Under the pieces are notes generated by a model. It saw only the letters and a program-made list of their open reading frames with translations. It was not told the origin of the DNA and did not search any database. Both the position numbers and the translations under genes were made by a program. This document shows positions 3,550 through 30,342 of a stretch of DNA of 64,000 nt, piece by piece; the first letter of the stretch is position 1, and each line of letters starts with the position of its first letter. Source of the DNA: Tubulanus polymorphus (Eukaryota; Animalia; Nemertea); NCBI RefSeq assembly GCF_964204645.1, contig NC_134036.1, forward strand, positions 9,837,859 through 9,901,858. The letters are read 5' to 3'.

Positions 3550-4527
3550 GTACAAAATTTTAAAAGATTTCTCAGAAATTGCCTCATTTTCTCGACCCCA
3601 TTTGGATATTTGGCTTTGATTTTGTTAATTAAACCATTCTTCTTTGCAACGGCCTTGATTTCCTCTGCCGATCAATATTCGAATCAATATTGAATGAGCG
3701 GCGAATTAACATCTGTTCAATCGCAGTATATTTTTACCGCTTTACTGGCCCCGACTGGAAAAGAGATTGAATGAGTATGATTTTCCATTTCATCAATGAT
3801 AATACCTCCTGTGTGAGACACTTACCCTCGTTTTTTTCTTCGGGGGGATAGCAATTATAACGCTCACTCGTCGAATTCTGTCTCTCATCACTCGAGCTTG
3901 ATTGGTTTGGTTCATCTGATTCCATCGCGCTCTTGTCTTCGTTCGAAAAAGAAGATAAACATTGTCGATTGAAGCAGCCGCTTTGAATTGAAAGCTGTCA
4001 TTGATCGAATGAGAAGTCACTTACCGCTGCGGGCTCGCTGGAGGCATCACCCTCGACTTCCATCGCACTCTTGTGTTCGTTCATAACCGTCTGAAAAAGA
4101 AGATAAACATTGTCGATTGAAGCAGCCGATTTGAATAGAAAGCTGTCATTGATCGAATGAGAAGTCACTTACCGCTGCGGGCTTGCTGGAGGCTTTGCCC
4201 GTCGATTCCATCGCGTTGCCTCTTTGTTTCGATTCCAATACGCCGCAGTCCAACTACAGAAAAAAGTGAAATGTCATGCTTGCCAGAACCATTAAATCCA
4301 AGTTGTATTGAGTCGATATACACAATCCAAATGTTCTTGTGTGAAGGTGACCGTCATCCAGGTTGTAGAACCTTTCTGCTGTTTGGGGGCGATACAACAT
4401 ATAACAGCTTAGTTTGGTTCACGTGGCACCATCTTTGTTGCACATAGCCGTCATTATGCTCCTACGTATCAAAGTCGGCGTAATGCCTTTTTTCCAATGG
4501 TGGAACTGACATAGCTGGCTAACGGTC
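3550..4527 (-). pseudogene. Decayed multi-exon gene of unknown function with tandemly duplicated mini-exon/intron units
   Basis: Minus-strand ag/gtaagt-bounded mini-exons LDCGVLESKQRGNAMESTGKASSKPAA, TVMNEHKSAMEVEGDASSEPAA and ..SAMESDEPNQ.. are separated by two near-identical ~70-bp introns. The terminal part contains stops. Confidence 0.4.
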
Positions 4528-4604
4528 TAAGAAAAGAAAACATTAAATATTTTCCATTGAATTTGTAAATAAAATGTATATTTATCTTACTTGTTGATAT
4601 ATAA

Positions 4605-5593
4605 TGTGTTAATCTAAAACTATGTGTAATATCTTCTGTTCGATGTAAGCAACTAATTATAGCCCATAGAAAACATTTATCATCTTCATTTTGTACATTT
4701 ATAATAGCATTAGTTTTAAATGGTAATTTGATATAACTCGATGCTTCAATATCTGGTTCTTTATAATATGATACATTATTTTCATCAATTGGTTTCGATT
4801 AAGTTAACTTATTATATTTTGTGTTCTAAACATGTATAGTCATAAATATTATTTCATCAAATATTAAACCAGATCCTTCAAAATATTTCTCTTCTATTTT
4901 AGTTTTTACTTCATTATAACATTTATTTAATTTTTCATCTATATGTTGTTTAGATATAATATGTTGTGAATGAGAATTTATATTATATATTGGTTTATCT
5001 TCAGATTTTATGAATTTAACTTTAGAAGATATACTAATTTTAGGGTATTCAACATCAGTTATTATTTTTATAATATTTTTCATATTTTCTAAATGTTTTT
5101 TATTTTCTTCTAATGTTTTTCTTTTATGAAATTTAAACTCGATAGCAGCTGGGCCAATATCACTTTTAAATGCTTCGGTTATCTCTATATCTTTTTTATT
5201 ATCTAATGAATTAATATAATTTCTTACATCTTCCATGTATGGTCTTTTATTGTTTAATTTATTTCTTATTCTTTTAATTGTCTTATGTTTCTTATCATTG
5301 TCATTATCAAAATAATCTTCACCTAAAATATCATTGTTCATATTTCTAATACGGCTTTTAGATTTTAAATGTTCATTATAATATCTTTTATCACTGAATG
5401 ATTGATTACATGTATCACATTTGTATGTTTCTTTTTCATTCTTTAATTCATCTAATTTAGTTTCTAATATATCATCTTTATATTCTAGTTTCAATTTATT
5501 CTCTAAATGTGTTTTAGTTTTATTGTGTCTTGATTTTTGGGATTTATCTATATTGATTTTACATGTTGAACAGTAGTACTTATTTGCTTCCAT
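4605..5593 (-). pseudogene. Polinton pPolB N-terminal fragment (subfamily A), premature stop at 4826
   Basis: Near-identical to the first ~330 aa of 16805-19426: two C2H2 fingers, FEGSGL, SSYIKLP, NEDDKCFLWAI. TAT>TAG at 4826; truncated after HSFRLT. Confidence 0.9.
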
Positions 5594-5630
5594 TTTAATA
5601 TCAAATTTTTTATTAAAATTGAACATAACA

Positions 5631-6002
5631 CTTACCTCTCAACGCGTCCCGCCGCCACGTGTGAGTCCAACCACGTGTGAGTCCCGCCTATTTATACTAC
5701 TCAACAGTGGGGAAACCCAGCTGCGTGTTGAGACTTGTAAATTATGAGGCTTGTGATTGGTTAGTGTAATAGGGAATACTCAACTGTGATTGGATAGAGT
5801 AATACTCAACTGTGATTGGATAGATTAATAGTAAAATACTCAACTGTGATTGGCTGGGAATACTCAACTGTGATTGGCTAATGTAATACTCAACTGTGAT
5901 TGGCTAATGTAGTTTTCTAGATGGGCGGTTCTAGAACCAACATGTAATACGCAATACTCAACGTGTTGAGACTTGTAAATTATGAGACTTGTGATTAGAT
6001 AG
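5631..6002 (-). promoter_or_regulatory. Pol II promoter-like cassette between the Polinton terminus and pPolB
   Basis: Five tandem aatactcaactgtgattgg units (CCAATCACA on the minus strand), a GGGCGG box at ~5923, TATAAATA on minus at ~5689-5696, two ccacgtgtgagtcc repeats and a gag|gtaagt donor at ~5635. Confidence 0.55.
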
Positions 6003-6195
6003 AGTAATAGGGGTAATAGGCTTTCATATCAAAGGTTGAGAGTTCGATAAATTTTCCAAATGTGAAATAATAATAATTTCTACTTGAATTAGGAGTGTAC
6101 GCGACTAATTCAAGTAGAAATTATTGTTATTTTCACATTTGGAAAATTTCTCGACCTCTCGACCTTTGGTATGAAAGCCTATTACCCCTATTACT
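6003..6195. repeat. Polinton terminal fold-back hairpin A (element end at 6195)
   Basis: ~90-bp inverted arms AGTAATAGGGGTAATAGGCTTTCATA(T/C)CAAAGGT(T/C)GAGAG..TTCTACTTGAATTAG around a 12-nt loop. Confidence 0.9.
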
Positions 6196-6198
6196 TAC

Positions 6199-6333
6199 CT
6201 TGTTCGTGGTGTCGGAGATCTTCTCTGTATTTCCGCCCTCAGAGGTGTACAACCAAGAAATGTAATTGCTTTGGAAGCAGTCACCCAAAGTGAATATAAA
6301 TAGCGCTGAGAACAGGTGACGGGAAATACTCAT
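6199..6333 (-). CDS. Putative first coding exon of a secreted protein, cut off by the Polinton end
   Basis: MSISRHLFSALFIFTLGDCFQ.. has a hydrophobic N-terminus and ends aag|gtaagt. The Polinton terminus starts 3 nt into the intron. Confidence 0.4.
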
Positions 6334-7289
6334 TGCGTTTGAAGAGAACTACGTGAGAATTGTTCTAACGAGTCTTGATAGGAACTGCTAACAGTGCTAG
6401 TAAGAATTTCTGAAGTCTCTCATCTCGCCATTGTTACCTATTGACTGTACATCTTCAGCCTTGAGAATTGCCGTCAATGATCGAATGATAGATTCAGTCG
6501 TTCAGTGCAGTCGTTTTAGCAAAACAGCTGTTCTATACATTTTCCAACAAGGTTATATTTTACACCTAACACGCGATAGAATTTCAATCTTGGTTAGTAT
6601 TTTGACACAGCCAAAGCGATTAAACTAAAACATGAAGCAATGAACGCTTAGGGGGAATTATATCGTTACTTAGAGAATATGAAAAAAATATACGTTTTTA
6701 CGCCGTCAAACTGTTCACTTTTTCAATTTTGTGCATTCGTCCAGTTTAAGCACACTGAGTGCACAAGGCAAACACAAATTATAATCCCTGCGAAACATCA
6801 AGGGCCTTTTACTCAATCCCTTCGGCCATTCGTGGTAATCGATGTATCAAGCTCATCCAGCCAATTCTTAAAGTGTGGAGTGACACAACAATCAGACAGT
6901 TCTTTGTCATATTTGGTTAGTTATCTCCACGTTAATTACCAACATCAAATTTACGCCGATGATCATCAGATCTATGAGGTGGTTCCACCAAAAACGTTAC
7001 AATGTTATGTCTGAACTGCCATACCTGGCAAACAGAGGTGAAACTGACTTTATAATGACCAATTACTGATTTTTCAGAAATCGCTGGAACGAATTCTGTG
7101 CAACGTTTAGAATCTAGAAATAATTTATGATTTGTTTTAGTTAATTAACTGTGTAAATGATATACTACGCAAAATCTGATCCTAAAAATGAAACATATGA
7201 GACGCAATCCTAGCAAAAACTCTCCATCGAATTTTAACATCGTTCTCACAATTGTACATCCAACTCAAAATCGAACTTTAAGCGACCGA

Positions 7290-7360
7290 TCCTCACCCGT
7301 CAAGGGATTCGAACCCACTACGCTAAAGCTGTTCTCCGAACCCCTTGACCTCTCGAGTCG
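7290..7360 (-). mobile_element. tRNA-derived SINE head or tRNA pseudogene
   Basis: Minus strand has ggtcaagg followed by a perfect B-box GGTTCGAATCC; no intact acceptor stem. Confidence 0.45.
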
Positions 7361-8187
7361 CTGGAGTCGTAACTTGTCGACCTGAATCCGGTTGTACCAA
7401 TCACAGCGCTTGTAACAAACTAAATAAGGCTTCTGTTGGTTTGTCCGTTGAATGGACCAATCAGCGAACGTTTTACCGAACAAGAAAGTATTTAGCAAAT
7501 CGATATATGACGTCATGCGCAACAGCGCCAGCAATGAAATCACGCTTCATGGGGCCAGGGGCCGGTGGAAGCGAGTTCGGGAGTGATACCGGACCCCTGG
7601 CAAGCGAGGACGAAGGGACCAGGATGGAGTTTAAGACAAATTTATGGTGCCGAAACCCGGGAACGAAGTGTTGATTGTGGTGTTAGAAAAAGTTGAATAC
7701 TAGAATTTGAAGAAATCGAGAGGAAAAAATGAACACGTGAGTTTTTCGAGTTAGTCTGTACTACATCCTCCCAGTCCCACTTTGTGAAAGTGAAGGAGTA
7801 AAAAAAAACAGAAAAAAAAATATCAGTCTCTTCTAAGAAAGGTAGTAGAGCAAGGTGAACCTCACAAAGAAAGCGGTCGCTGTTGGCTGAAGCTGAGGCG
7901 AAATAGGAAGACGTGAGTAAGCTACGGAAAAAGAGTTGCCACACTCACAATATTAATAGAATATTATCTTCTAAATTTGGAAAGAGCCTTGGATGAATTG
8001 CCAGAGTCTGTTCGTTCAATCGTTGACGATGCTGAAAGAAAAAAAGAAGAAATAGCGTTGGGGTTTTCCGACGAGGTTTTTGCTATGGCAACGGAAGCTA
8101 TGGCTCAAAAGCACTGAATAAGTATGAATCATTCGTGACTTTTTTTCTAAAAAAAAATTTAAAATATAAAGAATAAATTGATAAATG

Positions 8188-8300
8188 TTATGATTATTAC
8201 GATTATCATTATGATTATTATTATGATTATTATTTTGATTATTATTATGATTGTTGTTATCATTATTGTTATCATTATTATCATTATTACTATTGTTACA
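8188..8300. repeat. Degenerate (ATT)n microsatellite
   Basis: tgattattacgattatcattatgattattattatgattattatt... Confidence 0.85.
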
Positions 8301-8499
8301 ACTACCTACTCAATTCGCTGCACTTGCACTCTTGCACTCTAGGCACCTAGGTGCAGTGACCTGTACAGCCCCTAAGGCTCTCACTGTTACCTTCATTTAA
8401 CTTAACTCGGTAACATTTTTCTGTATTGTCATTATTCAGAGAAATGTAGTTAAATGAAAAATAAAATTATTATTATTGAAAATTTTGAATCATTTTTAA

Positions 8500-9407
8500 A
8501 CAATGTATTACTTTTTGATGCTTTATTCCTTTTTGTATCATAAATATTCAGATCTAAAATATGATTTCATTCAATGTTAGACCAGAACCCTCAAAATATC
8601 TTCCTTCAATATGACGTTTAATTCATTAAATATTTTTTTCTCTTTTATTTGTGTTTTTTAAATTATTTCGTCAAAATATGTTTGAATATTATACTCCATT
8701 TTTTCTTCTGATTTTATAAAACTTACTTTTCCAGAAATACTAATTTTTGGATATTCAACTCTGTAGCAAAGTCCATTATTTGTTCTATTATTTCGATATA
8801 TTTGCTATAAACTTATATTGTTGTGCCTTAAAAAAATCTAAATATAATGGCTGCAGGACCAATTTTACAACGTAATGTTTCTAAAATTTCTATTGTATCT
8901 TTTATTTCTAGTGAATCGATATAATTTCTTACATTTTCTATATAAGGTTTATTTGAAATAGATTTAGTTTTTGAAGCTGGTTTTTTTACTTGTTGAGGTT
9001 TATCATCAAAATATTCTGTTGCTAAAATATTTTTATTTAAATTGTGTTGGTGTTTTTGTGATTCGAGATGTCTTTCATAATTCCTTTTTGCTAGAAACTT
9101 CATTACAAACATTACATTTAATTTTATCTTTTTTTCATATTTTTTAATTGTTCTTTTCTTTCATTTGAATTTTCTGGTGTTTCAAAATCTATAACATTTT
9201 TTTATGATTTGCAGTTTTTTCGTGATGAGATTTATTAGATTTATCGATGTACTTTTTACAGTATGGACAATAATATTGATTTTTATTAACATCAATTTTT
9301 CTGTCTGGTACTCACAGTCTCCCATTTGTAAGGAAAAATTACTAGTGGTGATGAGTGATTTGTCGTACTCTCGTGCTCTGGTGTGAAAACGCTATTTTTC
9401 AATTACT
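8500..9407 (-). mobile_element. Polinton end fragment (subfamily B): terminus at 9407 plus frameshifted pPolB 5' part (ATG 9325)
   Basis: Minus strand begins AGTAATTGAAAAATAGCGTTTTCACACCAGAGCACGAGAGTACGA. The coding remnant (KRNYERHLESQKH, PYIENVRNYIDSL, IGPAAIIFRFF, FEGSGL) is colinear with 15504-16340. Confidence 0.85.
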
Positions 9408-10093
9408 GCTGCTTCTTGCCAAAAGTTGAGTGGAAAATCGGACTTTAAAGAATGCCACTTCTTTCTACAACAAGGTCCGCAGTCTTGGGGGAGCAGAGTT
9501 CTATCCGAGATCTCGATTTCCATACATAACAAGTTAGTGTTATTTTTTAGTAAATTGTCAAGGTTTTAATATGATATAAGATTTGATGAGGCGGGCCACT
9601 AAAAACATGTCCTTTTCGCCGCCGAAATTCATCCAAACTTACTTGGATTTGAAGTGGATTGGGATGTTGATTTCTGTACGGTATTTCGAGAACTTAGGTG
9701 TCTAGTTTATCATAAGCTATTGGGCCCGAGTCACACTATAACCGTTGTGGTGCGGCATACGAAAAAGTGCCGGGCAAATTCGGGAGGTTTGAGGAGTATT
9801 AGTCTGGGCGGATACGGATGGCTTGAGTGCTAACGGGTTTATAATGTTTTCAGTCAGATTTCTGAGAATTTGTTTTTCATTTGATGCGAACGAACAAAAA
9901 TAAATTGTGTGCGTAAATGAATATATGTCATGGCTTGCACGTAGCGTCAGTCTATTGATTCAATCAGTCCACATACCTCTGACACTTAATCGAATAATGA
10001 ATTCAACTCAGATGCAGTTTATCAGTTACATTGCTATAATGCCTGTAGTGAACAGGTCTAGAGCGTACCGAACAGAGTTAATTCTCGTGAATC

Positions 10094-11041
10094 ATGAATT
10101 CAACTAAGATACGAATTGGTCGAACGTATAGCAGTTACATCATTCTAATGTCGGTGGAGAACAGGTCTGGAACTTACCGTACTGTTTCGTTGGTCATTCT
10201 GCCTATCGTGTTTCTGTTTGGAGTCTTTGGAAATTCAGCTACTTTTCTAATAATGACGAGTCGCAGATTCCGCAGTTTATCTTACGCTAACTATCTTGTC
10301 ATTTTATCAGTCTGTGATTTCCTGTTCTGTATACATTTTACACTGATGCCTGTTTTACAGTTAGTTCTCTTGAATCTAAACACTAGTCTTATATTCATCA
10401 TGAATTCACTGATCAGTTGTAAGATATATGAAATATTGATGGCAGGTGCCAATTCTAGCAGTTCCTGGTTATTGGTAGCTATATCTCTAGAACGTGCGGC
10501 AGTTGTTCTCTTTCCGTTCACTTCTCGTTTGATATGCACGCCTAGATTCGCTAGATTTGCTATATTGATAATTACTACAGTGACTGTACTGATTCAACTT
10601 CCCGCTACTTTGTCGATACAATTTTCCGACCAATTTTTCGGATGTTACTATGAATTAATTGTCCAAATGAAATTTCTTACTCCACTTGGTGTCTACGCTT
10701 TTGTTTTGCCTTTATCGTTGATTCTAATATCAAATTCTATCACAATTATTCAGTTATTCAGAGGTTCAAAAATGGTTTCGTCTGATAAGAAAACTACAAA
10801 ATCGAAACGTACAACAATGATGCTTGTAACTGTTTCACTCGCATTTGCAATATTCACACTTCCAACCACTGTTGTTGTATTTTTACCAATCCTTACGGAA
10901 CAGAAAGAATTTCTATATGATATTTTGACACAATTCTTTATGAGTAACTATGTGGTAAACTTCTACATATATCTTTTACTTGGACGAGAAATTCGTGAAT
11001 ATTTCTGTATGAAAATCTGCTGTAGAAATTCAATCAAATAA
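10094..11041 (+). CDS. Single-exon rhodopsin-family (class A) GPCR, invertebrate FMRFamide-receptor-like/orphan peptide or chemosensory type
   Basis: 315 aa, seven hydrophobic segments. TM1 GVFGN, TM2 LSVCD, Cys before TM3, ISLERA (DRY equivalent), TM5 LP, TM6 FTLP, TM7 NFYIY (NPxxY equivalent), C-terminal CC. Confidence 0.93.
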   Translation: MNSTKIRIGRTYSSYIILMSVENRSGTYRTVSLVILPIVFLFGVFGNSATFLIMTSRRFRSLSYANYLVILSVCDFLFCIHFTLMPVLQLVLLNLNTSLIFIMNSLISCKIYEILMAGANSSSSWLLVAISLERAAVVLFPFTSRLICTPRFARFAILIITTVTVLIQLPATLSIQFSDQFFGCYYELIVQMKFLTPLGVYAFVLPLSLILISNSITIIQLFRGSKMVSSDKKTTKSKRTTMMLVTVSLAFAIFTLPTTVVVFLPILTEQKEFLYDILTQFFMSNYVVNFYIYLLLGREIREYFCMKICCRNSIK

Positions 11042-12293
11042 CCACTGATTTAAAATTTTATTCACATCGATTTACAGTAGGACATTTTGTTTGAGAATTG
11101 GAAATTAATCAAGGAATCACTGCCCTTGAAAATCGTGTCAATGAACCTATTAGTGTAAAATGGTTACTATGAACCGCAGCCTTTTAATCATTAAATATAC
11201 TCCCCTTCCCCCTTATCCCCACCCCACGTAGTCATACAACTTGAAACCGTATTTACTGTGGCCTGGTAAGAGTGTGATATTCAGTTAATGAAATTCGATT
11301 GTTATACAGCTGCAAATATATAATAAAACAGTTTGGAAAATCTAAATTTTCATTCTTCGAATTGTTGAATCTTTTCATTTTCGTTGATCATTTTTGTATA
11401 CAACACACAAATACAAACAGTAGTTTATCAAAGCTTTATTGTAGCTGGACGAGACATATTTCTGTGAAAATCCGCTGTAGAAATGAAGTCATGTAATCAA
11501 TCATTAATCATTGATTCATAGTTTGATTGACTTCATACAACTTAAATCCGCATATTCCGGTAACACTTCAGTAAAATACAATTACCGTTAATGTGTATAA
11601 CACTCCAGAACAAAAAGACATTGGAGCCATAGTTTGATCTTGCGCCTAGCCTTCACTTGTGGTTGCGTGTCACGACCGAATGCGTTTCATATAACCCGGT
11701 AGGGTAGGTAGTTTGTGTCCTTCACTCTGCCGATATCTTTCATATTCTATGAACCGTTACAATAACGGGTATTATATATTTCTATGGTTCATTTTGTAAC
11801 ACGCATTTCGCCATAAGCCTGCGTTTGAACACTCATGCAATGACGAGCGTGGTTGTGGTCGCGTCGTGGGGTAAGTTCGATATTTTTCTTACACTATTTC
11901 CTTGATAGTTTGAGGGTTTTCCTCCAATATCTTTCTCGTGTTTTATATTCTAGAATATTCGACGATGATATGGAAAAAGTAGATATTAAATATTCAGACG
12001 GAGTTGTAGTTGAATAGTTCTATCTGGACTGGTGAGAATGGATCAACTTGTTTGGATGCGCCTGGTGCTGAGCTGTGGACAGGACTAGCGAAATAAACTA
12101 CGACCGGCGAGATGAACTTAACGTATATACATAGTTTATTTTCAGTACAGCACTATGGCATCTGATAAACAGCGGCGATTCAAATCTACAAATACACATG
12201 TTGTAAACACACTAAATATATGTTTTTGAACTGATTTTACATAATATTCCGGTACTTCTAACAGATGATTTTGACACTTAACAGGTTAACATA

Positions 12294-12439
12294 AGTAATA
12301 GGGAATATGGGGGTTCATACCAAAGGTCGAACGGTCGAGCTCATAAAAAAATAAATTCTCGCACACTCGAATTTACTTTTTATTTTTTACTCGCCCGCCC
12401 CTTCAACCTTTGATATGAACCCCCATATTCCCTATTACT
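12294..12439. repeat. Polinton terminal fold-back hairpin B (element end at 12294)
   Basis: AGTAATAGGGAATATGGGGGTTCATACCAAAGGTCGAA ... TTCAACCTTTGATATGAACCCCCATATTCCCTATTACT. Confidence 0.9.
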
Positions 12440-12519
12440 CTTAAAATATTCATATATATGAATAACATATAAATGGATAAATTCTAAAATCAATTTAGTA
12501 ACAAATATTTGATATTAAA

Positions 12520-13170
12520 ATGGAACCAGAACAATCACAATTTATCAATATTACAAATAACACTGGTGTTATAAATATATACTACAAGCAATGTTCTAAA
12601 TGTGAATTAGATAAATTAGCTATAACAGAATTTAGTAAGCGTAAGATTAGCAAAGATGGTTTTCAATATTGCTGCAAAACTTGTATTAAACTATATACCA
12701 AGCAATATCGAGCAGATAATAGAGAACATTATAATGATTATATGACAGAATATATGAGAGGAAGATATAAAACAGATCTTAATTTTAAAATGAAACAATG
12801 TTTAAGGTCTAGATTAACACAATTATTCAACAAAGAAACGCATTCAGAAACACTATCTAATTTGTTGGGTTGTACAGATGAATTTCTCAAATCATGGATA
12901 ATATATCAATTCGACGATAAAATGAATATAGATAATTATGGTGAATACTTTCATATTGATCACGTGTTGCCGATTTTAAATTTGATATGAGCGGTGAATA
13001 CGTTAAAAAACTAATTTTGAATTGCAAAAATTTAAGACCCTTGAAAAGAAAGAAAATATAATTGAATCTAATAAACTAGATTTACAGTTATATTTAGATC
13101 AAGTGGTTAAAGCAAAGACATTTGTTGAATTATGGAATTCAACACAGAATGAAAAACACGTTGAATCTTA
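12520..13170 (+). pseudogene. Stand-alone Zn-finger + HNH/endonuclease-VII-like nuclease (large-DNA-virus type), frameshifted near 12975
   Basis: CSKC..EF..KDG..CKTC, LRSRL, LLGC, QF..M..NYGEYFHIDHVLP. Continues in shifted frames as ..KNLRPL(E)KKEN..SNKLDLQLYL.., matching 25667-25909. Confidence 0.8.
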
Positions 13171-13629
13171 AGCGTTTATAATAAGAACTCTACTCGAGTC
13201 GCTCGTGTATGTGTGTATATAGTTATCCATTATAACTGCCTATATGCAATTATACTAACATCTGTGCCACATTTTATATTCAGTTGAATGGGATGTACCT
13301 CATTTGAATATTGATCGAATGTGCTATTTCAGTTGAAAAGGATTAATCAATTACATCACAAAGGAACATCTGTTGCTTAGACAGACAGTGCCTGGGTATA
13401 TTGAGCGCAGTCGCATTACAACAGCCGAACTGAACAGACGGAATATATAGAACGTATAAGATTTTTCTCTAGAAACACAATTAGGAGTTTACAGTTATAA
13501 ATGTAAGTACTGTTTTTGTTGTTATTAAGACGCAGGGAAACGTTAAACATGTTTAAGTGCTGTAATTGATATTTGACAACTACAACTTCAAGTTAGTTTT
13601 ATTCTACATTCTAGATATTTGGTAAAAAA

Positions 13630-14349
13630 ATGTCATACAGATCAAGTACTCCATCTACTCCAAAACTGACGCAAGAAAGGGAGGAGCCAGAATGTATGGA
13701 TGTCAACACACCATCACAAGAGACTGTAATAGATATAGAAGACAAAAATATCGAAAAACTCAGGAAACAAATGGATTATTATAAACAATTAGTGTCAACT
13801 TTGGACGAAGTAATGACAACCATACAAGAATTACCAAAAATACCAACACCAAGTTTAAAAACATTATTAGGACTTAAAGAAAATAGAATCAAATTGAACG
13901 GTTATGAACTACACGAATATTTAAAATCAAAATTAATGGATCATAGAGATTTATCGAACATTAGTGAAATAGACGCGCATTTATTTTCAGAAATTAGTGG
14001 ATTACTGATAAGCGAGTATGAAAAATTGTTAACGAAACAAACAAATCATATTTGGAATTTTATAATTTTTGGGAATTCCTTGAATAAAGGGTTTGTTCTT
14101 TTCCACTCGACTCAAACTATAAATATTTCATGGGCTAATTGGGGTTAAGAAAATATACATATTAGTGTCGGGTATGAAAGAAAACTTAGATGGATTGGGA
14201 AATTATATTCATTTAAAAAATTTCAATTATTGGGTTTACCATTTGATACCGTTATTAATCATTTGACAGAAATCGAAAAAATGTTTGAAAATTACCCCGA
14301 AATCAAAGAATTCTGGTCGGAATTATATGATCCCAATGATGATTTATAA
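13630..14349 (+). pseudogene. Uncharacterised ~239-aa protein with one internal stop (14146-14148) and a 5'-UTR intron (13503-13614)
   Basis: The frame stays open after TAA: ENIHISVGYERKLRWIGKLYSFKKFQLLGLPF..FWSELYDPNDDL*. A gtaagt...ttctag intron lies just upstream of the ATG, and AATAAA occurs downstream. Confidence 0.6.
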
Positions 14350-14913
14350 CAGCAGTTGTTTTTCATACAATATAGATTTTTTGTATTAGTATTATATTTA
14401 CCCTAATTGCATTTTCTATTATTCTATGTTCAGCTATTGTTAATGTCGCAGTGACAGATGTTGTATTATACTTTATTGATTCCTGCATTCCACGCATACC
14501 TTACCGCTCGGCTCCCGAGCGGCTTGGAATGTGGAAATCGATAATGATTGTAGAATAAAATATATGTGTTTATGAAATAGTAATTCCACCAGTCGTTTCT
14601 CTAATTGAATAATACGACAACGTTTTGAGATGATGACGAAGATGATGTCGATTTAATATTTATCTTATATATCTGTCTATCAATATCATTCAAAACTACA
14701 AAATAAACGAAACAGAAATTAATACATGTACATTGACCTTCACAAAGTATCACTTATGTAATATAGAAAAAATATAATCAGGAACTTACTCGTTGCCTAT
14801 ATATGTATTACATGATGTCTTGACCAGCATGGTTAGGAGAGTGTCTACATAATGCCCAGATCTATATATTGTAAGCCTTACATAGAAATATTGTTGACCA
14901 ATGAAATGCCCAA

Positions 14914-15418
14914 GGCTGCGTTTTTCAAAGCGGTGATAAGCCCTATCCCGGTGATAAATCGCTATCCCGGTGTTAAATATTTTTATCACTGTGATAGTGT
15001 TTTTCAAACCTGTGTTAACTTTATCACCGGGATAAAATCAGCTATCCCAGTGATAAAGTTAACACACCTCCGACGTGGTGATAGCAACACTATCACCAGG
15101 ATAAATTATCAAAATGGCTGCCATTTTTTATGATGATATCTATCAAGAACGAATTTATAGACACCCACGCCGCTATCGATATCACGAAACAGTTAAATTT
15201 GTAATTAATGATTATTTAGAAAATGAAGTGAGACAGAAATATAGCTTTAGTTCGGAAAATATCACACGAATAATAGATTTAATTCGAGAAGATATAACGT
15301 ATGATACACAACGTTCCAAAGCACTTTCTGCTGAGTTACAAGTGAAGGTTGCTCTCCGATATTACGCAACGGATAGTTATTTGGATGCACTTGGTGACAC
15401 ATTTGGTCTTGTTAAATC
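14914..15418 (+). mobile_element. PIF/Harbinger 5' end with HARBI1-like transposase N-terminus (ATG 15114), truncated by a Polinton end
   Basis: Subterminal palindromic tatc(a/c)c.g.gata repeats. Protein ..KYSFS..RSKALSAELQVKVALRYYATDSYLDALGDTFGLVKS matches the Harbinger HTH region. Confidence 0.85.
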
Positions 15419-16812
15419 AGTAATTGGAAGATGTGGGTTTCATACCAGAGGGCGAGAGGGCGAGACACCACTCATCACCGCAAGTAATTTTTTTTCCTAA
15501 TAAATGGGAGAGAATGAACACCAGCCAGAAAACAATAATGTTAATAAAAATCAATATTATTGCCAATATTGTAAAAAATACATCGATACATCTCCTAAAA
15601 CACGACATGAAAAAACTGCAAATCATATAAAAAATGTAATAGATTTTGAAACTCCAGAAAATTCCAATGAAAGAAAAGAAAGATTAGAAAATATGAATGT
15701 GGATGAAATAAAATGTGAAGTTTGTAATGAATTTATAGTAAAAAGGAATTATAATAGACATCTCGAATCACAAAAACACCGCCAAAATTTGAGTAATAAT
15801 GTTTTAGGAAAAGATTATTTTGACGATAAACCTCAAAAAGTAAAAAACCAAATTCAAAAACTAAATCCATTTCAAATAAACCTTACATGGAAAATGTTAG
15901 AAATTATATTGATTCACTAGAAATAAAAGATACAATTGAAATCTTAGAAACATTACATAGTAAAATTGGTCCTGCAGCTATTATATTTAGATTTTTTAAA
16001 GGAACAACAATAGAAGATTATAGTAAATTTAATGAAATAATAGAAAAAATACTAGATTTGATAACAGATGTTGAATATCCAAAAATTAGTATCTCTGGGA
16101 AAGTAAGTTTTATAAAGTCAGAAGAATAAATGAATTATAATATTCAAACACACTCTGAAGAAATAATTTCAAAAACACATAAAAGAGAAGTTAGAAAAAA
16201 TATTTAATGAATTTAAACGTCATATTGAAGAAAGATATTTTGAGGGTTCTGGCTTAACATTGAATGAAATTATATATTTAGATTTAAATGTTTATAATAT
16301 AAAAAGAAATAAAACATCAAAAAGTAATAAAATGTTTAAAAATGATTCAAACTTTACAACAGAAAAGGATATTAAAGCATCATCTTATATTAAATTACCA
16401 TTTACAACAAAAGCAGTAATAAATGTTCAAAATGAAGATAATAAATGTTTTCTATGGTCAAATATTAGTTGCTTACACCCAACAGAAGATATTACGCATA
16501 GTTTTAGAATAACAAATTACCGGAAATATGAAACATTATATAAAATTGATCAATATCCAGTAACTATAAAAATGATTCTTAAAATAGAAAAAGTTAATAA
16601 TTTAAAAATAAATGTATTTGAATTAATGCAATTACCAAAGACAAAAGGTGAAAATATTAAAGATTATACATTGGAAGCTTTATATTTAACAGAACATTAT
16701 GATGATGAAAATGTTATAGATTTGTTATATTACAAAAAAGATGAAAATGAACATTATATGTGGTTAAAACAAATTGATTTATTCTTTAGAACAGAAAGTG
16801 ATCATCATCGTA
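15419..16812 (+). mobile_element. Polinton end fragment (subfamily B): terminus at 15419 plus broken pPolB (ATG 15504)
   Basis: Starts AGTAATTGGAAGATGTGGGTTTCATACCAGAGGGCGAGAGGGCGAG. ORFs 15504, 15887 and 16260 are consecutive frameshifted pieces (C2H2 fingers, YPKISIS, SSYIKLP, NEDNKCFLW, EHYMWLK). Confidence 0.9.
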
Positions 16813-19426
16813 ATAATAGTAGTTGATCTATATTTGTTAACAAATCCATTTTTATATCTGTAAATTTTAATCCACAATCCCATGTTAATCCTGGTGATGA
16901 ATAACAATGACAAGGATCAATATTGAAATATTTTAGGTTTACATATCTAAACCTTTCGAATATATCGGTTAATAATAATACATCTGATTTTAAATATAAA
17001 TCTACTAATTGCCCATGATTTTCTATTTTGAAATGATTCCAAATATTCAATGTTCTATTATAAACTTCATCTTTAACATATTCAATTTTTAATTCATCAT
17101 AAAATTGTTCTTTCAATAATTCAGTTATTTCAAAATCATTATGATTTTTATGGAAAGAATATGGAATCGCTCCTTTATATCTCATTAATTTAAAATCATC
17201 ATTATTTGGGTAATATTCTTTTAATATCTTTAATTCATCATCAACTAATGATTTTGATAAGTTATCTAATGAACTATTTAAAAATCTATATGAATCTATA
17301 AATCTTAGACAACCAAATTGGAATGATATATAATTCTCAGATGTTTTAGCTAACATTCTAAATTTATAAGTTGGTATTTTATCTTTTGATCTATTTGAAT
17401 TTAATATTTCTATTTCATTATTGATTTCTTCTATTTTATAACATAACTGTTTGATAAATGAATGTGCATCATATCCTGATAGATAATGAAATATAACTGG
17501 TACAAAGTTAATTTTCTTAGCTTGTAAGTTACAATTCTCATGTGCAGCGCCTCTAAACTTTCCATTCAAATGATCATGGTCTCTTACTTTTTTATCTTTA
17601 TAATTAAATATCTTTTCACAATAATAACATTTATCTGCAAACGCAAATACTTCTTTATCTTCTTCTGTCATTATAATTTCTATATTTGTATTCAATAATT
17701 TACTAAATCTTATTTCATATTCAATTAATAAGTCACAAAAATGATTAATAACATTTTCATTTCTATAATCATAATATTCACTTTCAATTAGTTCTGGATA
17801 ATCAGATTTAATATATAACCCGAAAGCAGCAGCTGATTGATGAACCTTTTTAATAGTATTTGTTTTTGGTGGTTCATCTGAAAAATCATTTTCATTAGAA
17901 TTTAATTTCTTTCTTTTATAATTTATTTCTTTTCTATCTTGATCAGTTAGTTCTTTATTTAATGATTCAAAATCTCCATATATTACAAATGGTACTTTAT
18001 TTTTGTAATCATATTTTTTGAATTCTAATATTTTATCTTTTTCATTTGGTAAAACTAATTTACAATAATCATGATTATCACATAATTGTTTATGATTTAA
18101 TAATGTACTTTCATTACTAAATTTATGTAAACATTTTCTACATAGATATATTTTATTATGGTGATCACTTTCTGATTTAAAAAATAAATCGATTTGTTTA
18201 ATCCACATATAATGATTCTCATAATATAATATATCTATAACATCGTTTGAATCATAATCTTTTGATAGATATAAAGGTTCTAATGTATAATGTTTTATAT
18301 TGTTACCTTTTGTATTTGGTAATTTGATTAAATCAAATACATTTATCTTTATATTATTATCTCTTTCTATTTTTGGGATGTTTTTAATTCTAACAGGATA
18401 CTTATCTATCTTATAATTACTTTCAAATGGTTTATAATGAGTTAATCTAAAACTATGTGTAATATCTTCTGTTGGATGTAAACAACTTATTATAGCCCAT
18501 AGAAAACATTTATCATCTTCATTTTGTATATTTATTACAGCATTAGTTTTAAATGGTAGTTTAATATAACTTGATGCTTCAATATCTGGTTCTTTATAAT
18601 ATGATAAATTATTTTCATCAATTGGTTTTGATTTAGTTAACTTATTATATTTTGTGTTATAAACATGTAAAGTTATAAATATTATCTCATCAAATATTAA
18701 ACCAGATCCTTCAAAATATTTATCTTCTATTTTAGTTTTTATTTCATTATAACATTTATTTAATTTATCATCTATATGTTGTTTAGATATAATATGTTGT
18801 GAATGAGAATTTATATTATATATTGGTTTATCTTCAGATTTTATAAACTTTACTTTAACTGATATACTAATTTTAGGATATTCAACATCTGTAATTATTT
18901 TTATAATATTTTTCATATTTTCTAAATATTTTTTATTTTCTTCTAATGTTTTACCTTTATGAAATTTAAACTCGATAGCTGCTGGACCAATATCACTTTT
19001 AAATGCTTCGGTTATCTCTATATCTTTTTTATTATCTAATGAATTAATATAATTTCTTACATCTTCAATGTATGGTCTTTTATTGTTTAATTTATTTTTT
19101 ATGCTTTTAATTGTCTTCTGTTTCTTATCGTTATCATTATCAAAATAATCTTCACCTAAAATATCATTATTCTTATTTCTAATATGACTTATAGATTTTA
19201 AATGTTCTTTATAATATCTTTTATCACTGAATGATTGATTACATGTATCACATTTGTATGTTTCTTTTTCATTCTTTAATTCATCTAATTTAGTTTCTAA
19301 TATATTATCTTTATATTCTAGTTTTAATTTATTCTCTAAATGTGTTCTAGTTTTATTGTGTCTTGCTTTTTGAGACTTATCTATACTTATCTTACATGTT
19401 GGGCAGTAGTATTTATTTGCTTCCAT
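16805..19426 (-). CDS. Polinton/Maverick protein-primed DNA polymerase B (subfamily A), C-terminally truncated before the palm
   Basis: 873 aa: 2x C2H2, NEDDKCFLW...HYMW (OTU-like Cys/His region), CRKC..H..C finger, ExoI YGDFES, inserted EndoVII CYYC..VRDHDHLNGKFRGAAHENCN, ExoII FHYLSGYD, FIDSYRFL, ExoIII YLKSDVLLL, YSSPGLTWD. Ends before RGG/DxNSLY. Confidence 0.93.
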   Translation of the reverse strand: MEANKYYCPTCKISIDKSQKARHNKTRTHLENKLKLEYKDNILETKLDELKNEKETYKCDTCNQSFSDKRYYKEHLKSISHIRNKNNDILGEDYFDNDNDKKQKTIKSIKNKLNNKRPYIEDVRNYINSLDNKKDIEITEAFKSDIGPAAIEFKFHKGKTLEENKKYLENMKNIIKIITDVEYPKISISVKVKFIKSEDKPIYNINSHSQHIISKQHIDDKLNKCYNEIKTKIEDKYFEGSGLIFDEIIFITLHVYNTKYNKLTKSKPIDENNLSYYKEPDIEASSYIKLPFKTNAVINIQNEDDKCFLWAIISCLHPTEDITHSFRLTHYKPFESNYKIDKYPVRIKNIPKIERDNNIKINVFDLIKLPNTKGNNIKHYTLEPLYLSKDYDSNDVIDILYYENHYMWIKQIDLFFKSESDHHNKIYLCRKCLHKFSNESTLLNHKQLCDNHDYCKLVLPNEKDKILEFKKYDYKNKVPFVIYGDFESLNKELTDQDRKEINYKRKKLNSNENDFSDEPPKTNTIKKVHQSAAAFGLYIKSDYPELIESEYYDYRNENVINHFCDLLIEYEIRFSKLLNTNIEIIMTEEDKEVFAFADKCYYCEKIFNYKDKKVRDHDHLNGKFRGAAHENCNLQAKKINFVPVIFHYLSGYDAHSFIKQLCYKIEEINNEIEILNSNRSKDKIPTYKFRMLAKTSENYISFQFGCLRFIDSYRFLNSSLDNLSKSLVDDELKILKEYYPNNDDFKLMRYKGAIPYSFHKNHNDFEITELLKEQFYDELKIEYVKDEVYNRTLNIWNHFKIENHGQLVDLYLKSDVLLLTDIFERFRYVNLKYFNIDPCHCYSSPGLTWDCGLKFTDIKMDLLTNIDQLLLLR

Positions 19427-19506
19427 TTTAATACTAAATTTTTTATTAAAATTGATTTTAGAAGTTCAATGATTTAAATGTTATTCATTTATATGAATAT
19501 TTTAAG

Positions 19507-19912
19507 AGTAATAGGGATAATAGGCTTTTATATCAAAGGTTGAATGGTCGAGTTTCATTAAAAACATATATTAAAAGTAATTAAAAACTATAATATATTT
19601 TCATAACCGCGTGTATTTCAGTTGAATAATAGAATAATTATTATCATTTGAATATATTTGATTATTTGAATTTGTGTATTGTAATTAAATCAATTGGTCG
19701 CGGAGCGGAGCGGTGGCGAAGCGGAGCGACCAATTGATTTAATACAATATGCATTTAAAATTATTGATATCTTAGAATAAATATTTAGTTTTGATATAAA
19801 ATGCACGCGGTTATGAAAATATATTGTAGTTTTTTAATTACTTTTAATATTTTGTTTTTTAATGAGCTCGACCTTTCGACCTTTGGTATGAAAGCCTATT
19901 ATCCCTATTACT
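19507..19912. repeat. Polinton terminal fold-back hairpin C (element end at 19912)
   Basis: ~110-bp outer inverted arms, a poorly paired middle, and an inner stem attaaatcaattggtcgc/gcgaccaattgatttaat around a GC-rich ggagcg-repeat loop. Confidence 0.9.
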
Positions 19913-22659: not shown

Positions 22660-23271
22660 TTATTTTATAAATTTATATTCATAGGGAAATTGTAGCCTCA
22701 GTAATAATTTTGAACCTTTATTATTCTTTAATTTATTCATATATTCATCGTGTAATTCAGTAGGTATAATTTGATTTTCTTCCAATGATTGTTGCATAGA
22801 TTTTTTATCTTTGTTATAAAATAAAACTAGAAATCTAATGTTTTCTCTAAAGTCTTTAACAATTGAATTATATTTTTGATTTAAAACCCATGTTGTTATC
22901 CCAAAATGTCTCCCAGAGAAAGCTAAATAACATAACTCACTTTCTCTCACTTTTGAATCATGTAAATTTGCGCAATCATCTACAATGAATAATGTATTTG
23001 ATCCTTTATAAGTATCAATTGCTATTTTAATACAATTATCTAAATTTTCTTTTACTGTTTTAGGATTTAATATAATTAACTTTTTTATCTTAACTATATC
23101 TCTATTATATGTTTTATTCATTTCATAAGTAGGACAGAATAATATTATATTATCAAAATGATTCTTATAAATAGTTTCTAACAAGTCTAATATGAAATGT
23201 GTTTTACCACAATTGGTTACTCCAGTAACTAACATATTATGCGGTTCAAATATAAATAGATCTTTATTCAT
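22660..23271 (-). CDS. Polinton packaging ATPase (A32-like, FtsK-HerA superfamily)
   Basis: Walker A GVTNCGKT, Walker B LFIVDD, arginine-finger GRH, sensor LNQKY, ..FREN. Confidence 0.92.
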   Translation of the reverse strand: MNKDLFIFEPHNMLVTGVTNCGKTHFILDLLETIYKNHFDNIILFCPTYEMNKTYNRDIVKIKKLIILNPKTVKENLDNCIKIAIDTYKGSNTLFIVDDCANLHDSKVRESELCYLAFSGRHFGITTWVLNQKYNSIVKDFRENIRFLVLFYNKDKKSMQQSLEENQIIPTELHDEYMNKLKNNKGSKLLLRLQFPYEYKFIK

Positions 23272-24355
23272 TTATTCTTTTAATTTTACTAGATAAAATC
23301 CATTCATTAAATTTATCATCGTATCATTTATATTTCACCAAAGAATACTTTTTTCCTTTAAGAGTTTTTGTTTTCAATACTTTTTCTATTTTGTATTCTA
23401 TTTCATCTGGATTTGGTACAAGTGATAATTCTTGTTCATAGAAATAACCTAATATTTCTTCATCTTTTAGATCTTCTAATTTATAAACAAAAGGTTTAGT
23501 TAATATTATCTTTTTAATCTTGAATATTTCTTCTGTAAAATTTGGGGTATAACCTTTATAAAAGGTTTTTCTATATTTAGATATTCTAACGTGTTGTCCT
23601 ATTTTAAATTTAGGTTCTCCGAAATCATGTGTAACAAATGCTCCATATAAATTATTCCAAACTATTTCCGAATTATCTTCTTTTCTAGCTTGTATAGGTT
23701 TCATATTTATAGAACTATGTTTAGAATTATTATAACCTTTCACTAAATCATCTAACACATCGATATATTTATATGTTTCATTAGTAGTAAAATATTTCCA
23801 CATTCTAGTTTTCAATGTTTTATTAAGTCTTTCTATAATAGATGCTTTTTTATCTGAGTGAGTTGAAAAATATTTTACATCGTTATCAGATAATAGTTTT
23901 TTGAAATGTTTGTTATAAAATTCCTTACCTTCATCAAATTGTATCTTATCTGGAATAGCTTCTTTAAATATAGATTTAAAAGCATTTGTCACTTCTATAC
24001 CAGTTTTATTTTTGATTGGAATTGACCATGCGTATCTACTGAATATGTCTATAACATTTAATATCCAGAAATATCCTTTGTTGTATTCTTCTAAGTTCTT
24101 CATGTCAATTAAATCTGCTTGCCATTGTTGATCGATATATGAAACCATAACTTTTCTTGTTAAATAAGTTTTATCCATTTTCTTGTGGATTTGATATGTT
24201 GGTTGATTTTGTAACCATGATTTTAATTCACTATATTTTATATCACCATTTTCTTTATCAGATTTAATTTTATTCCATAATTCTGAAACGCTAGAATATG
24301 ATACTTCACTTTCTGGGTTATAATATAAATCTCTTAAATATTGTTCTTTTTTCAT
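23264..24355 (-). CDS. Polinton retroviral-like (rve) integrase with C-terminal chromodomain; premature stop at 23324-23326
   Basis: WQADL (D), IDIFSRYAW, QFDEGKEF (D), IIERLNKTLK (E), GYTPNFTEE. Chromodomain YKIEKVL..LVKYK*YDDKFNEWI has TGA where Gly is expected. Confidence 0.93.
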
Positions 24356-24369
24356 CTTATTTTAATCCA

Positions 24370-24759
24370 TTAATAATAATTTAGATTTAGTTTCAATGGC
24401 TTTATGATTTGACTTATTTTCTGGTATGATAGGTTTACTGTCTGTACACGGATACTAAGTTTCCGATTGTCATTGGAATCATCTTTATCATCAGATTTGA
24501 ATTTTGATTTATATATTACACCAGATAATATAATAACTGTTACTAATCCAATTGTAATATATAATTTATAATTACTTCCAGCATTAGAAGAATTAGATGG
24601 ATTATCATTCGAATCAATATCAGATAAAGTCTGTGATTCATTCATATCAGTTAATTTCTTTTTCTTAGCTTTTTTTAATTCTGAAGATCTTTTACCTAAT
24701 TCTCTTGCCCATTTAATTTATTCTCTGATCTAGCCTTTTTCTTAACTGCATCACTCATT
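24370..24759 (-). pseudogene. Small Polinton membrane protein (basic N-terminus plus one TM), frameshifted
   Basis: ATG at 24759 overlaps the upstream ORF end. ..KWARELGKRSSELKKAKK.. leads into ORF 24645 with TM segment LYITIGLVTVIILSGVIY. Confidence 0.5.
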
Positions 24760-25353
24760 TATTTTAGTTAATTTTTGTTCTGATTCATTTTCTGTTTCGA
24801 CGTTTGGTTGTAGTACATCTGTTTCGTTCTTACCTGATTTATTTTCCATAGGCTTGATGTTCGAAAATGTTATGACACCAGTAGAAATTAATGTCATAAC
24901 CGATCCTAATTGAAATGAAGCATAACCAACCCGTTTTTGTAATTCAGTCATAAATAAGTAGTCATTTTTCAAATCACTATATAATTTATTTTCATCATCA
25001 ATTGGTATTAACTGATTACATAACTTAGAATAACATTTGACAATACCATTCGAAATAGAATCATTTATTTTAGCTAATCTTGCCTCTTCATAAATCTTAA
25101 AATATTTTATTACTTTATCTGGTTTCATAGAGTCTAATTCTTGAAAAGTAATTATTTTCCCGATAAACTGATTACATTTCCCGCCAGCAATTAATAATTC
25201 TAGATGGTGTTTACATGTTAAATAGTATTCATAATCTATATTGTTATTAACTTGAATAGAATTAGAAACAACTGTATCTTTATTATCACTTATACCTAAA
25301 TCATCTAATGTCTTTTCAATATCAATACTATTCTTATTAGATTTCTTTGACAT
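24751..25353 (-). CDS. Conserved Polinton/adintovirus-type hypothetical protein
   Basis: 200 aa, tightly packed upstream of the integrase. The pattern L..G....F.GK..T..EL..Y..A......L..DL.ND....G..IT resembles a recurrent invertebrate Polinton ORF (recognised from memory, not searched). Confidence 0.65.
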   Translation of the reverse strand: MSKKSNKNSIDIEKTLDDLGISDNKDTVVSNSIQVNNNIDYEYYLTCKHHLELLIAGGKCNQFIGKIITFQELDSMKPDKVIKYFKIYEEARLAKINDSISNGIVKCYSKLCNQLIPIDDENKLYSDLKNDYLFMTELQKRVGYASFQLGSVMTLISTGVITFSNIKPMENKSGKNETDVLQPNVETENESEQKLTKINE

Positions 25354-25666
25354 TTATATTAGAGAAAAAAAGCAAAAAAAATATTATAAGTATTCTTCAA
25401 ATGATACCAGTATCTCTTTAGATTAATACTAGCTTAGTTAAAGGTAAAGAATTTTAGTATTAGTTATTGTTTTTTTAGTATTTTTTATTTGTGATATAAA
25501 GTATTCTCTTTTGAAAAGAATTGTAAAAGAAAATATTAAAAATTAAAATAGAAATAATGGCTAGTTGAAGTTATTGTTTTTTAAATACTTTTTATTAAAA
25601 ATCTATTTGATATCTCACTACTTTTGTTTATCTATTAGGAGCAGTAGTTATAACTGTCCAGATAAG

Positions 25667-25909
25667 TCATTTCGGATCCTTGATATCAAATTCCTCAACG
25701 TATTGTTCATTATTTGGATTATTGTTCCATTGATCAATAAATGTCTTTGCCTTTGTTAACTGTTCTAAATATAACTGTAAATCTAGTTTATTAGATTTGA
25801 TTTGATTTTCTTTCTTTTCTAAAGGCCTTAAATTTTTCCAACCCCAAATAAATTTTTTATTGTATTCATCATTCATGTTAAATTTAGATATTGGTAACAC
25901 GTGATCAAT
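25667..25909 (-). pseudogene. C-terminal half of the stand-alone HNH/EndoVII-like gene (5' part lost)
   Basis: IDHVLPISKF...WKNLRPLEKKENQIKSNKLDLQLYL, homologous to 12955-13170. Confidence 0.85.
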
Positions 25910-26154
25910 CAGTCAGGAACACTTTCCAAAAACGGCTTATTCTGCCAATTTCGGCGTTTTCCGCCAATAACGGCAGAATAAGCCGTTTTTGGATCACTCA
26001 GTTTTAAACTGCTACTGCCAATTTAGCCGAAATCGGCGTTTTCTGCCATTTTTGGCTTGTTCTTAAAAAACGCCATTTCCGCCGTTTTCGGCTGTAACAG
26101 TTTTTAAAACTACATCGCCAGAAACGGCGTTTTTGCGTAGATAGTTTTACAGTG
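25910..26154. mobile_element. One end of a CMC/EnSpm-type DNA transposon (CACTG terminus) with subterminal repeats
   Basis: Ends ...ttttacagtg (reverse complement CACTGTAAAA). Many cggcgttt/gccaattt repeats and a 22-bp inverted repeat at 25925-25993. Confidence 0.55.
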
Positions 26155-30199: not shown

Positions 30200-30342
30200 T
30201 GAAATATAAGTCCCACAATCACGAAGCCGAAAAACTTGAAATAGTTTAATTTTAAAAATGTATTAAAAATAGGATTTTAATATATCTTTAACGTAACTCT
30301 ATTTCAATTTTTTCGGCTTCGTGATTGTGAGCTTATATTTCA
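30200..30342. repeat. ~45-bp inverted repeat just downstream of the PHD gene
   Basis: tgaaatataagtcccacaatcacgaagccgaaaaacttgaaatag ... ctatttcaattttttcggcttcgtgattgtgagcttatatttca. Confidence 0.85.

Follow-up and report, generated by a model that had tools for sequence, protein, structure and literature searches.

Imperfect terminal palindromes that keep their mismatches and adjoin a promoter-like leader form the terminal hairpins of parvoviruses and poxviruses. Here we show that local palindromes of this kind terminate a many-copy family of Polinton-type elements in a 64,000-nucleotide (nt) stretch of the genome of the nemertean Tubulanus polymorphus (NCBI RefSeq assembly GCF_964204645.1, contig NC_134036.1, positions 9,837,859 to 9,901,858 of the forward strand; hereafter the window, with positions counted from its first letter). 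Unlike the viral examples, this family is an integrated form with a terminal-protein polymerase, and no flip/flop isomers were seen in the four complete hairpins compared.

The closest described elements are Polintons (Mavericks) with a nuclease-bearing pPolB (pPolB2 of Jeong et al. 2023, PMC10748475; layout in Krupovic et al. 2024, PMC11161782), with which, on the available text of both papers, the window family shares a terminal-protein domain, a vOTU domain, an inserted His-Me nuclease, an rve integrase, an A32-type ATPase and many dispersed copies. Nuclease inserts in pPolB were already known (PMC10748475, in part), and the available text of PMC11161782 reads them as intein-type invasions. 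The window family differs from these Polintons in having local palindromes as its termini, which end at the element's first base; hairpin or palindrome wording is absent from the available portion of PMC10748475, and the available portions of PMC11296320, PMC11071296 and PMC11131425 describe no Polinton terminal hairpins. While an earlier description is possible, the only report of terminal palindromes in Polinton-like elements that our literature search returned concerns virophages as well as Polinton-like viruses (PLVs) of Halocafeteria seosinensis (bioRxiv 10.64898/2026.07.28.741278), in which palindromes likewise occupy the extremities of elements that integrate and bear rve. According to the available text of that preprint, these palindromes mostly accompany replication genes other than pPolB, measure 52 nt in the example given and are proposed to act by hairpin priming, whereas those of the window family measure 146-406 nt, precede a pPolB that keeps its terminal protein, show a one-strand mismatch bias and occur in an animal.

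In the original prediction, two inward-facing hairpin ends at 12294 and 19912 formed the terminal inverted repeat (TIR) of one element and each launched one nuclease gene. Our best explanation, in which both are ends of a hairpin-ended Polinton family whose HNH nuclease gene is internal, is in our judgement probably correct as an account of architecture; as to mechanism, we regard the chances as evenly balanced that a fold-back of the 3' single strand serves protein-primed replication. The features on which the argument turns are as follows, with family A denoting the hairpin-ended elements and family B a paralogous group.

12294 to 12439, plus strand: imperfect terminal palindrome of 146 nt, from AGTAAT to ATTACT, forming the left end of a family-A Polinton copy (folding and alignment).
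12440 to 12519, plus strand: AT-rich leader of 80 nt, its final ~30 nt being a motif found ahead of several of the family's genes (alignment).
12520 to 13170, plus strand: stand-alone zinc-finger and HNH nuclease gene, frameshifted near 12976-12980 and near 13040; similarity to a second copy ends at 13164.
15419 to 15503, plus strand: terminus of a family-B Polinton, with AGTAAT start, single arm, no hairpin, and leader (clipped reads and folding).
15504 to 16826, plus strand: broken and truncated 5' part of a family-B PolB, which faces the family-A PolB head-on.
16805 to 19426, minus strand: family-A pPolB, open over 873 amino acids (aa), with C2H2 fingers, terminal-protein (D1) domain, vOTU domain and an exonuclease with an EndoVII-like insert.
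19427 to 19506, minus strand: leader of 80 nt homologous to 12440-12519 (alignment).
19507 to 19912, minus strand: imperfect terminal palindrome of 406 nt, 19912 being the element terminus (folding and clipped reads).
6003 to 6195, minus strand: third family-A terminal palindrome, 193 nt (folding), separated from its PolB by a different segment of ~380 nt.

As had been proposed, the two leaders are homologous up to the first two codons of the genes that follow: 79 of 96 columns are alike between 12438-12531 (plus) and 19508-19415 (minus), with a score of 116 (mean 11.6 and maximum 40 in 1000 shuffles), and similarity stops after ATGGAA, the next 100 nt scoring 14. Both leaders also follow mismatched palindromes whose end coincides exactly with the element boundary, as is true of the palindrome in all four complete cases. 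The palindrome at 12294-12439 folds with z-scores of -12.7 and -14.8 on the two strands, and none of 200 shuffles was as stable on either. The further claim that the hairpins are the same stands for their outer ~46-62 nt (87% over 62 nt) and fails for their loop-side parts, which differ among the palindromes of 146, 406 and 193 nt. Upstream of the third hairpin's PolB, at 5623-6002, the 80-nt leader is replaced by the ~380-nt segment and only the last ~27 nt before ATG are still homologous, a possible promoter swap; this segment carries what we take to be repeated CCAAT-like boxes, a TATA-like box and a splice-donor-like site.

Relatives of these ends were sought among 98 PolB loci drawn from contigs of metagenomes, viruses and genomes, most of which are short, so that absence of a gene proves little. 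Hairpins are kept in lineages whose PolBs are 72-77% identical (the window, L001 and L003), and they share a mismatch at arm position 27; the L003 contig starts inside its hairpin, and the inner arm ends in ATTACT. Three L001 genes have a common AT-rich upstream motif of ~30 nt, at scores reached by fractions of 0, 0.0025 and 0.0035 of 2000 shuffles. Among the loci, after rows below 15% G+C had been dropped, 30 palindromes were counted, of which three start with AGTA(A/G)T, in L001, L052 and L069; those of L052 and L069, bounded by AGTAGT, are candidate termini. Leaving L001 aside, palindromes with this start number 2 of 29 against 0.03 expected, a post hoc comparison. The hairpins of L037 were rejected as termini, as five similar copies lie between genes: this unrelated contig has intergenic hairpins of ~110 nt around a PolB-integrase pair (1298-1403, 6474-6585, 7068-7183, 14361-14487 and 15572-15674). 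In L054, a perfect 924-nt inverted repeat occupies both ends of a PolB contig (1-924 and 3545-4468) and may be an assembly artefact or a fold-back molecule.

Raw genomic reads under the same species label (about 12 in 100 of one run) show how these ends are situated across the genome. At 19912/19913, 1858 and 570 reads are clipped with flank agreement of 0.34 and 0.36, and depth drops to ~20 beyond the terminus; inward it runs on from the inner arm (~2200) through the leader (~2000) into PolB (1400-1700). Clipping with mixed flanks, together with unbroken depth inward, identifies the hairpin as an element end rather than mainly a free palindromic element; the hairpin-leaders at 12294 and 19912 are real ends of a many-copy Polinton family. 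A free palindromic miniature inverted-repeat transposable element was rejected as the main class, since reads continue from the hairpin into leader and PolB, and no clip peak at 19507 appears among the six clip rows listed (237 further rows exist). At 19472, 35 nt inside the leader, 563 reads are clipped with an agreement of 0.89, which may mark a second leader class or the right end of the family.

That the two ends bound one element is contradicted by several lines of evidence. No target-site duplication (TSD) was found for any of six opposed end pairs, 12294 and 19912 matching at one of six bases; a further terminus lies inside the interval at 15419, where 544 reads are clipped with mixed flanks (agreement 0.37); and depth within 12294-19912 is uneven, at ~25 over 14610-14910, ~50 over 13707-14308 and up to 1400 elsewhere. 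The near-identical TIRs and 5-8 bp TSD of a single intact Polinton are absent at 12294-19912, where the leaders are 82% alike and the loops unrelated. Because of the missing TSD, the inner end and the uneven depth, 12294-19912 is not one element, and the two ends are likely separate, broken left ends. Both genes are broken as well, the nuclease by two frameshifts and the family-A PolB by truncation near residue 885 of 1363, short of the polymerase motifs (full-length PolBs occur in L001, L003 and L005). Two inward-facing ends in a decayed cluster can thus be mistaken for the TIRs of one element.

Nor is it supported that each end launches one gene. In relatives, the HNH gene is internal and stands right behind PolB: a relative that includes the nuclease part occurs in 4 of the 98 loci (L001, L002, L003 and L012), always directly behind PolB on the same strand, and four further loci match only the N-terminal zinc region. 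The order is hairpin (190-446), leader, ORF121, PolB, HNH in L001; inner hairpin arm, open reading frame (ORF), PolB, HNH in L003; PolB then HNH in L012; and PolB, HNH, ORF200, ORF115, integrase in L002, as in the window at 25909-23324. In the reads, depth rises from 203 at 12502 to 914 at 12589, and clipping at 12518 affects 618 reads, with an agreement of 0.85; most HNH copies in the host therefore have another upstream neighbour. The end at 12294 probably derives from a left end whose PolB was removed by an internal deletion, which would have brought HNH behind the leader; such a deletion could most simply have run through the common upstream motif and the ATGGAA with which the two genes start (PolB and HNH genes both begin with ATGGA). 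L069 offers a parallel: there a hairpin bounded by AGTAGT runs straight into an interior stretch of PolB, next to a retrotransposon. L001 (571-936) and L003 (338-~720) carry, after the hairpin leader and ahead of PolB, an ORF of ~120 aa that is absent from the window family and, judged by eye, is a possible OB-fold single-strand binding protein.

The original prediction went on to propose that a cruciform with its base at the element boundary is cut by EndoVII-like nucleases, so that the element is excised or its ends resolved. The exact coincidence of palindrome and terminus is as this model would have it, and His-Me finger motifs with the D-H-N catalytic residues are indeed present in both proteins. 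Like T4 endonuclease VII (T4 EndoVII; PF02945), the PolB insert has the D-H-x-H...N motif and a zinc site, and the stand-alone gene D-H...N. The PolB ORF matches Pfam Endonuclease_7 at residues 587-635 (E 1e-5, above cut-off; model positions 11-62 of 82), and the Asp-His-Asn triad, described as essential in T4 EndoVII in the available text of PMC5481773, is kept in 112 of 120 listed relatives, including insect proteins at ~34% identity. Unlike T4 EndoVII, no PolB insert of these 112 has a Glu at the Glu65 position (N+3 or N+4), a residue whose role is treated in PMC5722908 (seen in part). A search of the insert sequence against the PDB gave chance rows only. The proposed link between this nuclease and the hairpins is not borne out, as the insert is intact in L005, which has a single arm and no hairpin, and the motif is clade-wide (its presence in 91 of the 98 loci is not used as evidence, the loci having been fetched with that motif). 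The PolB nuclease is a conserved part of the polymerase clade, not tied to hairpins, although its substrate may include the folded end.

The stand-alone protein was likewise not found to be specifically EndoVII-like. Its motif IDH..NL.PL...EN..K.N spans the reading-frame breaks, and no Pfam family was recognised for the gene in the window or for P0001, an intact relative at 54% identity with a predicted fold at a local distance difference test score (pLDDT) of 90. In favour of the cruciform, P0001 matches PHROG 1035, labelled endonuclease VII, at E 6e-12; it also matches HNH families. Its nearest viral models, however, are giant-virus HNH proteins, namely mimivirus L246 and an intron-encoded endonuclease of Bodo saltans virus, and the family numbers 31,759 representatives at E<=0.001. 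In the suggested fold check, P0001 had no PDB match at E<=0.001 and weak rows (Cas9 HNH, BrxU, Hpy99I and Cap5), and T4 EndoVII was not listed, which does not exclude likeness to it. In an alignment of 51 HNH rows, D168 and H169 are invariant and N192 and N201 kept at 90% or more. The gene is most likely a homing-endonuclease-type accessory gene; viral contigs scanned with P0001 gave five distant loci, in other viruses.

A second check, on co-occurrence of hairpin and HNH gene, also gave a divided answer. Within the closest clade the window, L001 and L002/L003 have both, and in hairpin-less L005 no HNH gene stands beside PolB, as the cruciform model would have it; against it, L052 has a hairpin end and PolB followed directly by the integrase. 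Two ends with two nucleases is, moreover, not the layout of the family. Taken with the strand bias described below, these points make the cruciform, in our estimation, very unlikely as the working form.

The polymerase itself bears on how the ends may be used. Its terminal-protein domain is kept, with the D1 topology set out in PMC11161782 (available text) and a Ser-Gly loop whose Ser is present in 36 of 44 rows, and the Asp, Cys and His of the vOTU domain are invariant in 44 of 44. The top folds for the terminal-protein domain were Y-family polymerases, including a little-finger domain, at a sub-threshold E of 0.006-0.025. Viral contigs gave no match with the window PolB, integrase or end pattern, and the PolB alignment returned only four distant loci. 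Loci L085-L097 are group-2-type Polinton PolBs in contigs of bacterial metagenome-assembled genomes, probably eukaryotic or viral contamination of bins.

In each of the three window hairpins the outermost 22-26 nt of the arms are fully paired, and where copies diverge, at 2-7 of 46 arm positions, both arms have changed together; in the reads, the paired changes 19517/19902 and 19522/19897 are each present in about half. On the 3'-terminal strand, every one of the 12 isolated transition mismatches reads as G-T (binomial p 5e-4, the copies not being independent), the set comprising the three window hairpins and L001 with two shared positions counted once for the window; looser counts that include loop regions are 7:1, 11:1, 4:0 and 10:5. 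The 3'-terminal strand also folds better in all three window hairpins. Since a cruciform pairs both strands, a bias of 12:0 is by our reasoning not expected of it and disfavours it.

We propose that the palindrome folds on a single strand, displaced or excised, whose 3' end is the terminus. The folded strand would give a paired end, or origin, for protein-primed copying, and would be bound by the terminal-protein/polymerase complex; if the inner arm served as template for mending the outermost 22-26 nt, the occurrence of subfamily changes in both arms would be accounted for. A fold-back serving protein priming is favoured because of the one-strand bias, the single orientation of the hairpins and the kept terminal-protein and vOTU domains. 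Streptomyces telomeres, where terminal-protein priming takes place on a 3' single strand folding through palindromes, are an analogy only: their proteins are unrelated, and according to the available text of PMC4513846 they have several short palindromes and no integration.

The same fold-back could instead act as in parvoviruses, with the 3' end priming directly and the PolB-fused nuclease or HNH nicking to reopen the hairpin. The fold-back strand bears the terminal 3'-OH, flush with the inner arm, the nuclease triad kept in most relatives could supply the nick, and the same model is proposed for palindromic virophage and PLV ends in the available text of 10.64898/2026.07.28.741278. Hairpin transfer should, however, invert the arms, yet all four complete hairpins share one orientation in a flip/flop check, and the T>C changes at 19533 and 19541 that inversion would bring are not among the variant rows listed (40 of 176), though neighbours at ~50% are. 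Retention of the terminal-protein and vOTU domains also speaks against self-priming. No A22-type resolvase was recognised, and general Pfam scans turned up no HUH Rep/NS1 nickase, no search having been aimed at it. We regard self-priming as unlikely. Equally doubtful is a hybrid end for one branch of the nuclease-bearing (group-2-type) Polintons, where the long, wobble-tolerant hairpin of the 3' strand would be both origin for terminal-protein priming and structure-specific substrate of the polymerase-fused EndoVII-like domain, freeing the end precisely at the terminus or trimming the protein-linked end before integration.

Several observations weigh against our reading of architecture and mechanism. 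No full-length copy with both ends was seen, and a rearrangement specific to this family or species may instead have moved HNH to the opposite end. Because L002 and L003 represent a single element (HNH 99% identical), the PolB-HNH tandem amounts to four loci in three lineages. Outer-arm depth (~3700-4000) exceeds inner-arm depth (~2200-2700), which is unexplained. In L001 the two strands fold equally well, one mismatch in distant L069 runs in the reverse sense, and 11 of the 12 mismatches are outer C and inner T, as strand-specific deamination could also give. The family-B ends at 9407 and 15419 have the outer-arm motif, no inner arm and no fold (z -0.3 and +1.0); like that of L005, whose PolB is 67-68% identical to family B and 58% to family A, they work without a hairpin, which is hence not essential to the wider group. 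The deamination pattern, the hairpin-less family-B ends and the free turnover of loop-side sequence would also fit hairpins that are a by-product without function, a snap-back duplication or tiny two-ended derivative fixed at the terminus and shaped by gene conversion and mutational bias. The persistence of hairpins across diverged lineages with the mismatch at arm position 27, the recurrence of AGTAGT-bounded palindromes in distant L052 and L069 and the read evidence against free hairpins as the main class argue otherwise, and we consider a functionless origin quite unlikely.

The remainder of the region from 4.6 to 26 kb consists of fragments of Polinton-type elements (PolB pieces, rve integrase, A32-type ATPase), including:

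4600 to 5622, minus strand: 5' fragment of a second family-A PolB, which is 94% identical to 18433-19455.
8476 to 9407, minus strand: second family-B end, without hairpin, with a broken PolB 5' fragment (sequence and folding).
22660 to 25909, minus strand: internal Polinton gene block of HNH 3' fragment, ORF200, ORF115, rve integrase and A32-type ATPase.

The order of this last block matches the genes behind PolB in L002, a contig that stops before the ATPase. Its integrase (23327-24352; Pfam rve, E 1e-9) has an 84% identical counterpart on one contig with PolB in L002, and its packaging ATPase (22663-23271; Pfam Pox_A32, E 3e-12) lies in a fragment separate from PolB. No capsid or protease gene was found among 17 window ORFs searched against Pfam and seven proteins searched against PHROGs, these being fragments only and no capsid-specific profile being used; Rfam gave no match in 5500-26500.

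Five Polinton ends lie within 14 kb (6195-19912), two of them adjoining other transposases, which resembles an insertion-dense repeat cluster: SWIM/MULE-type ORFs start at 19913, directly outside the terminus, and the ORF at 15105-15418, adjoining the end at 15419, is presumably Harbinger-like (no Pfam match). GACAC stands 11-18 nt outside four of five element ends, those at 6195, 12294, 15419 and 19912, at variable spacing, by target preference or chance. Further palindromic repeats without AGTAAT ends occur at 14982-15066, 30200-30342 and 25925-25993, the last at the cut-off point of the second HNH copy. An intronless rhodopsin-family G-protein-coupled receptor ORF (10091-11041; 7tm_1, E 2.5e-18) sits amid the element fragments, and ~40000-61000 is taken up by an array of an 89-nt satellite that shows higher-order repeats and segmental duplications.

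How Polintons leave the chromosome, start replication and remove the terminal protein is open, the shedding step being called unclear in the available text of PMC11161782, and the hairpin family offers a defined substrate for these questions. It extends terminal palindromes from protist elements, mostly without pPolB, to pPolB elements in an animal; it provides, in hairpin family A and hairpin-less family B, a natural contrast within one genome; and its one-strand G-T bias is a sequence signature separating fold-back from cruciform models. If true, the hybrid end would supply the missing step of Polinton excision or end-processing and would explain why the nuclease is retained across the polymerase clade.

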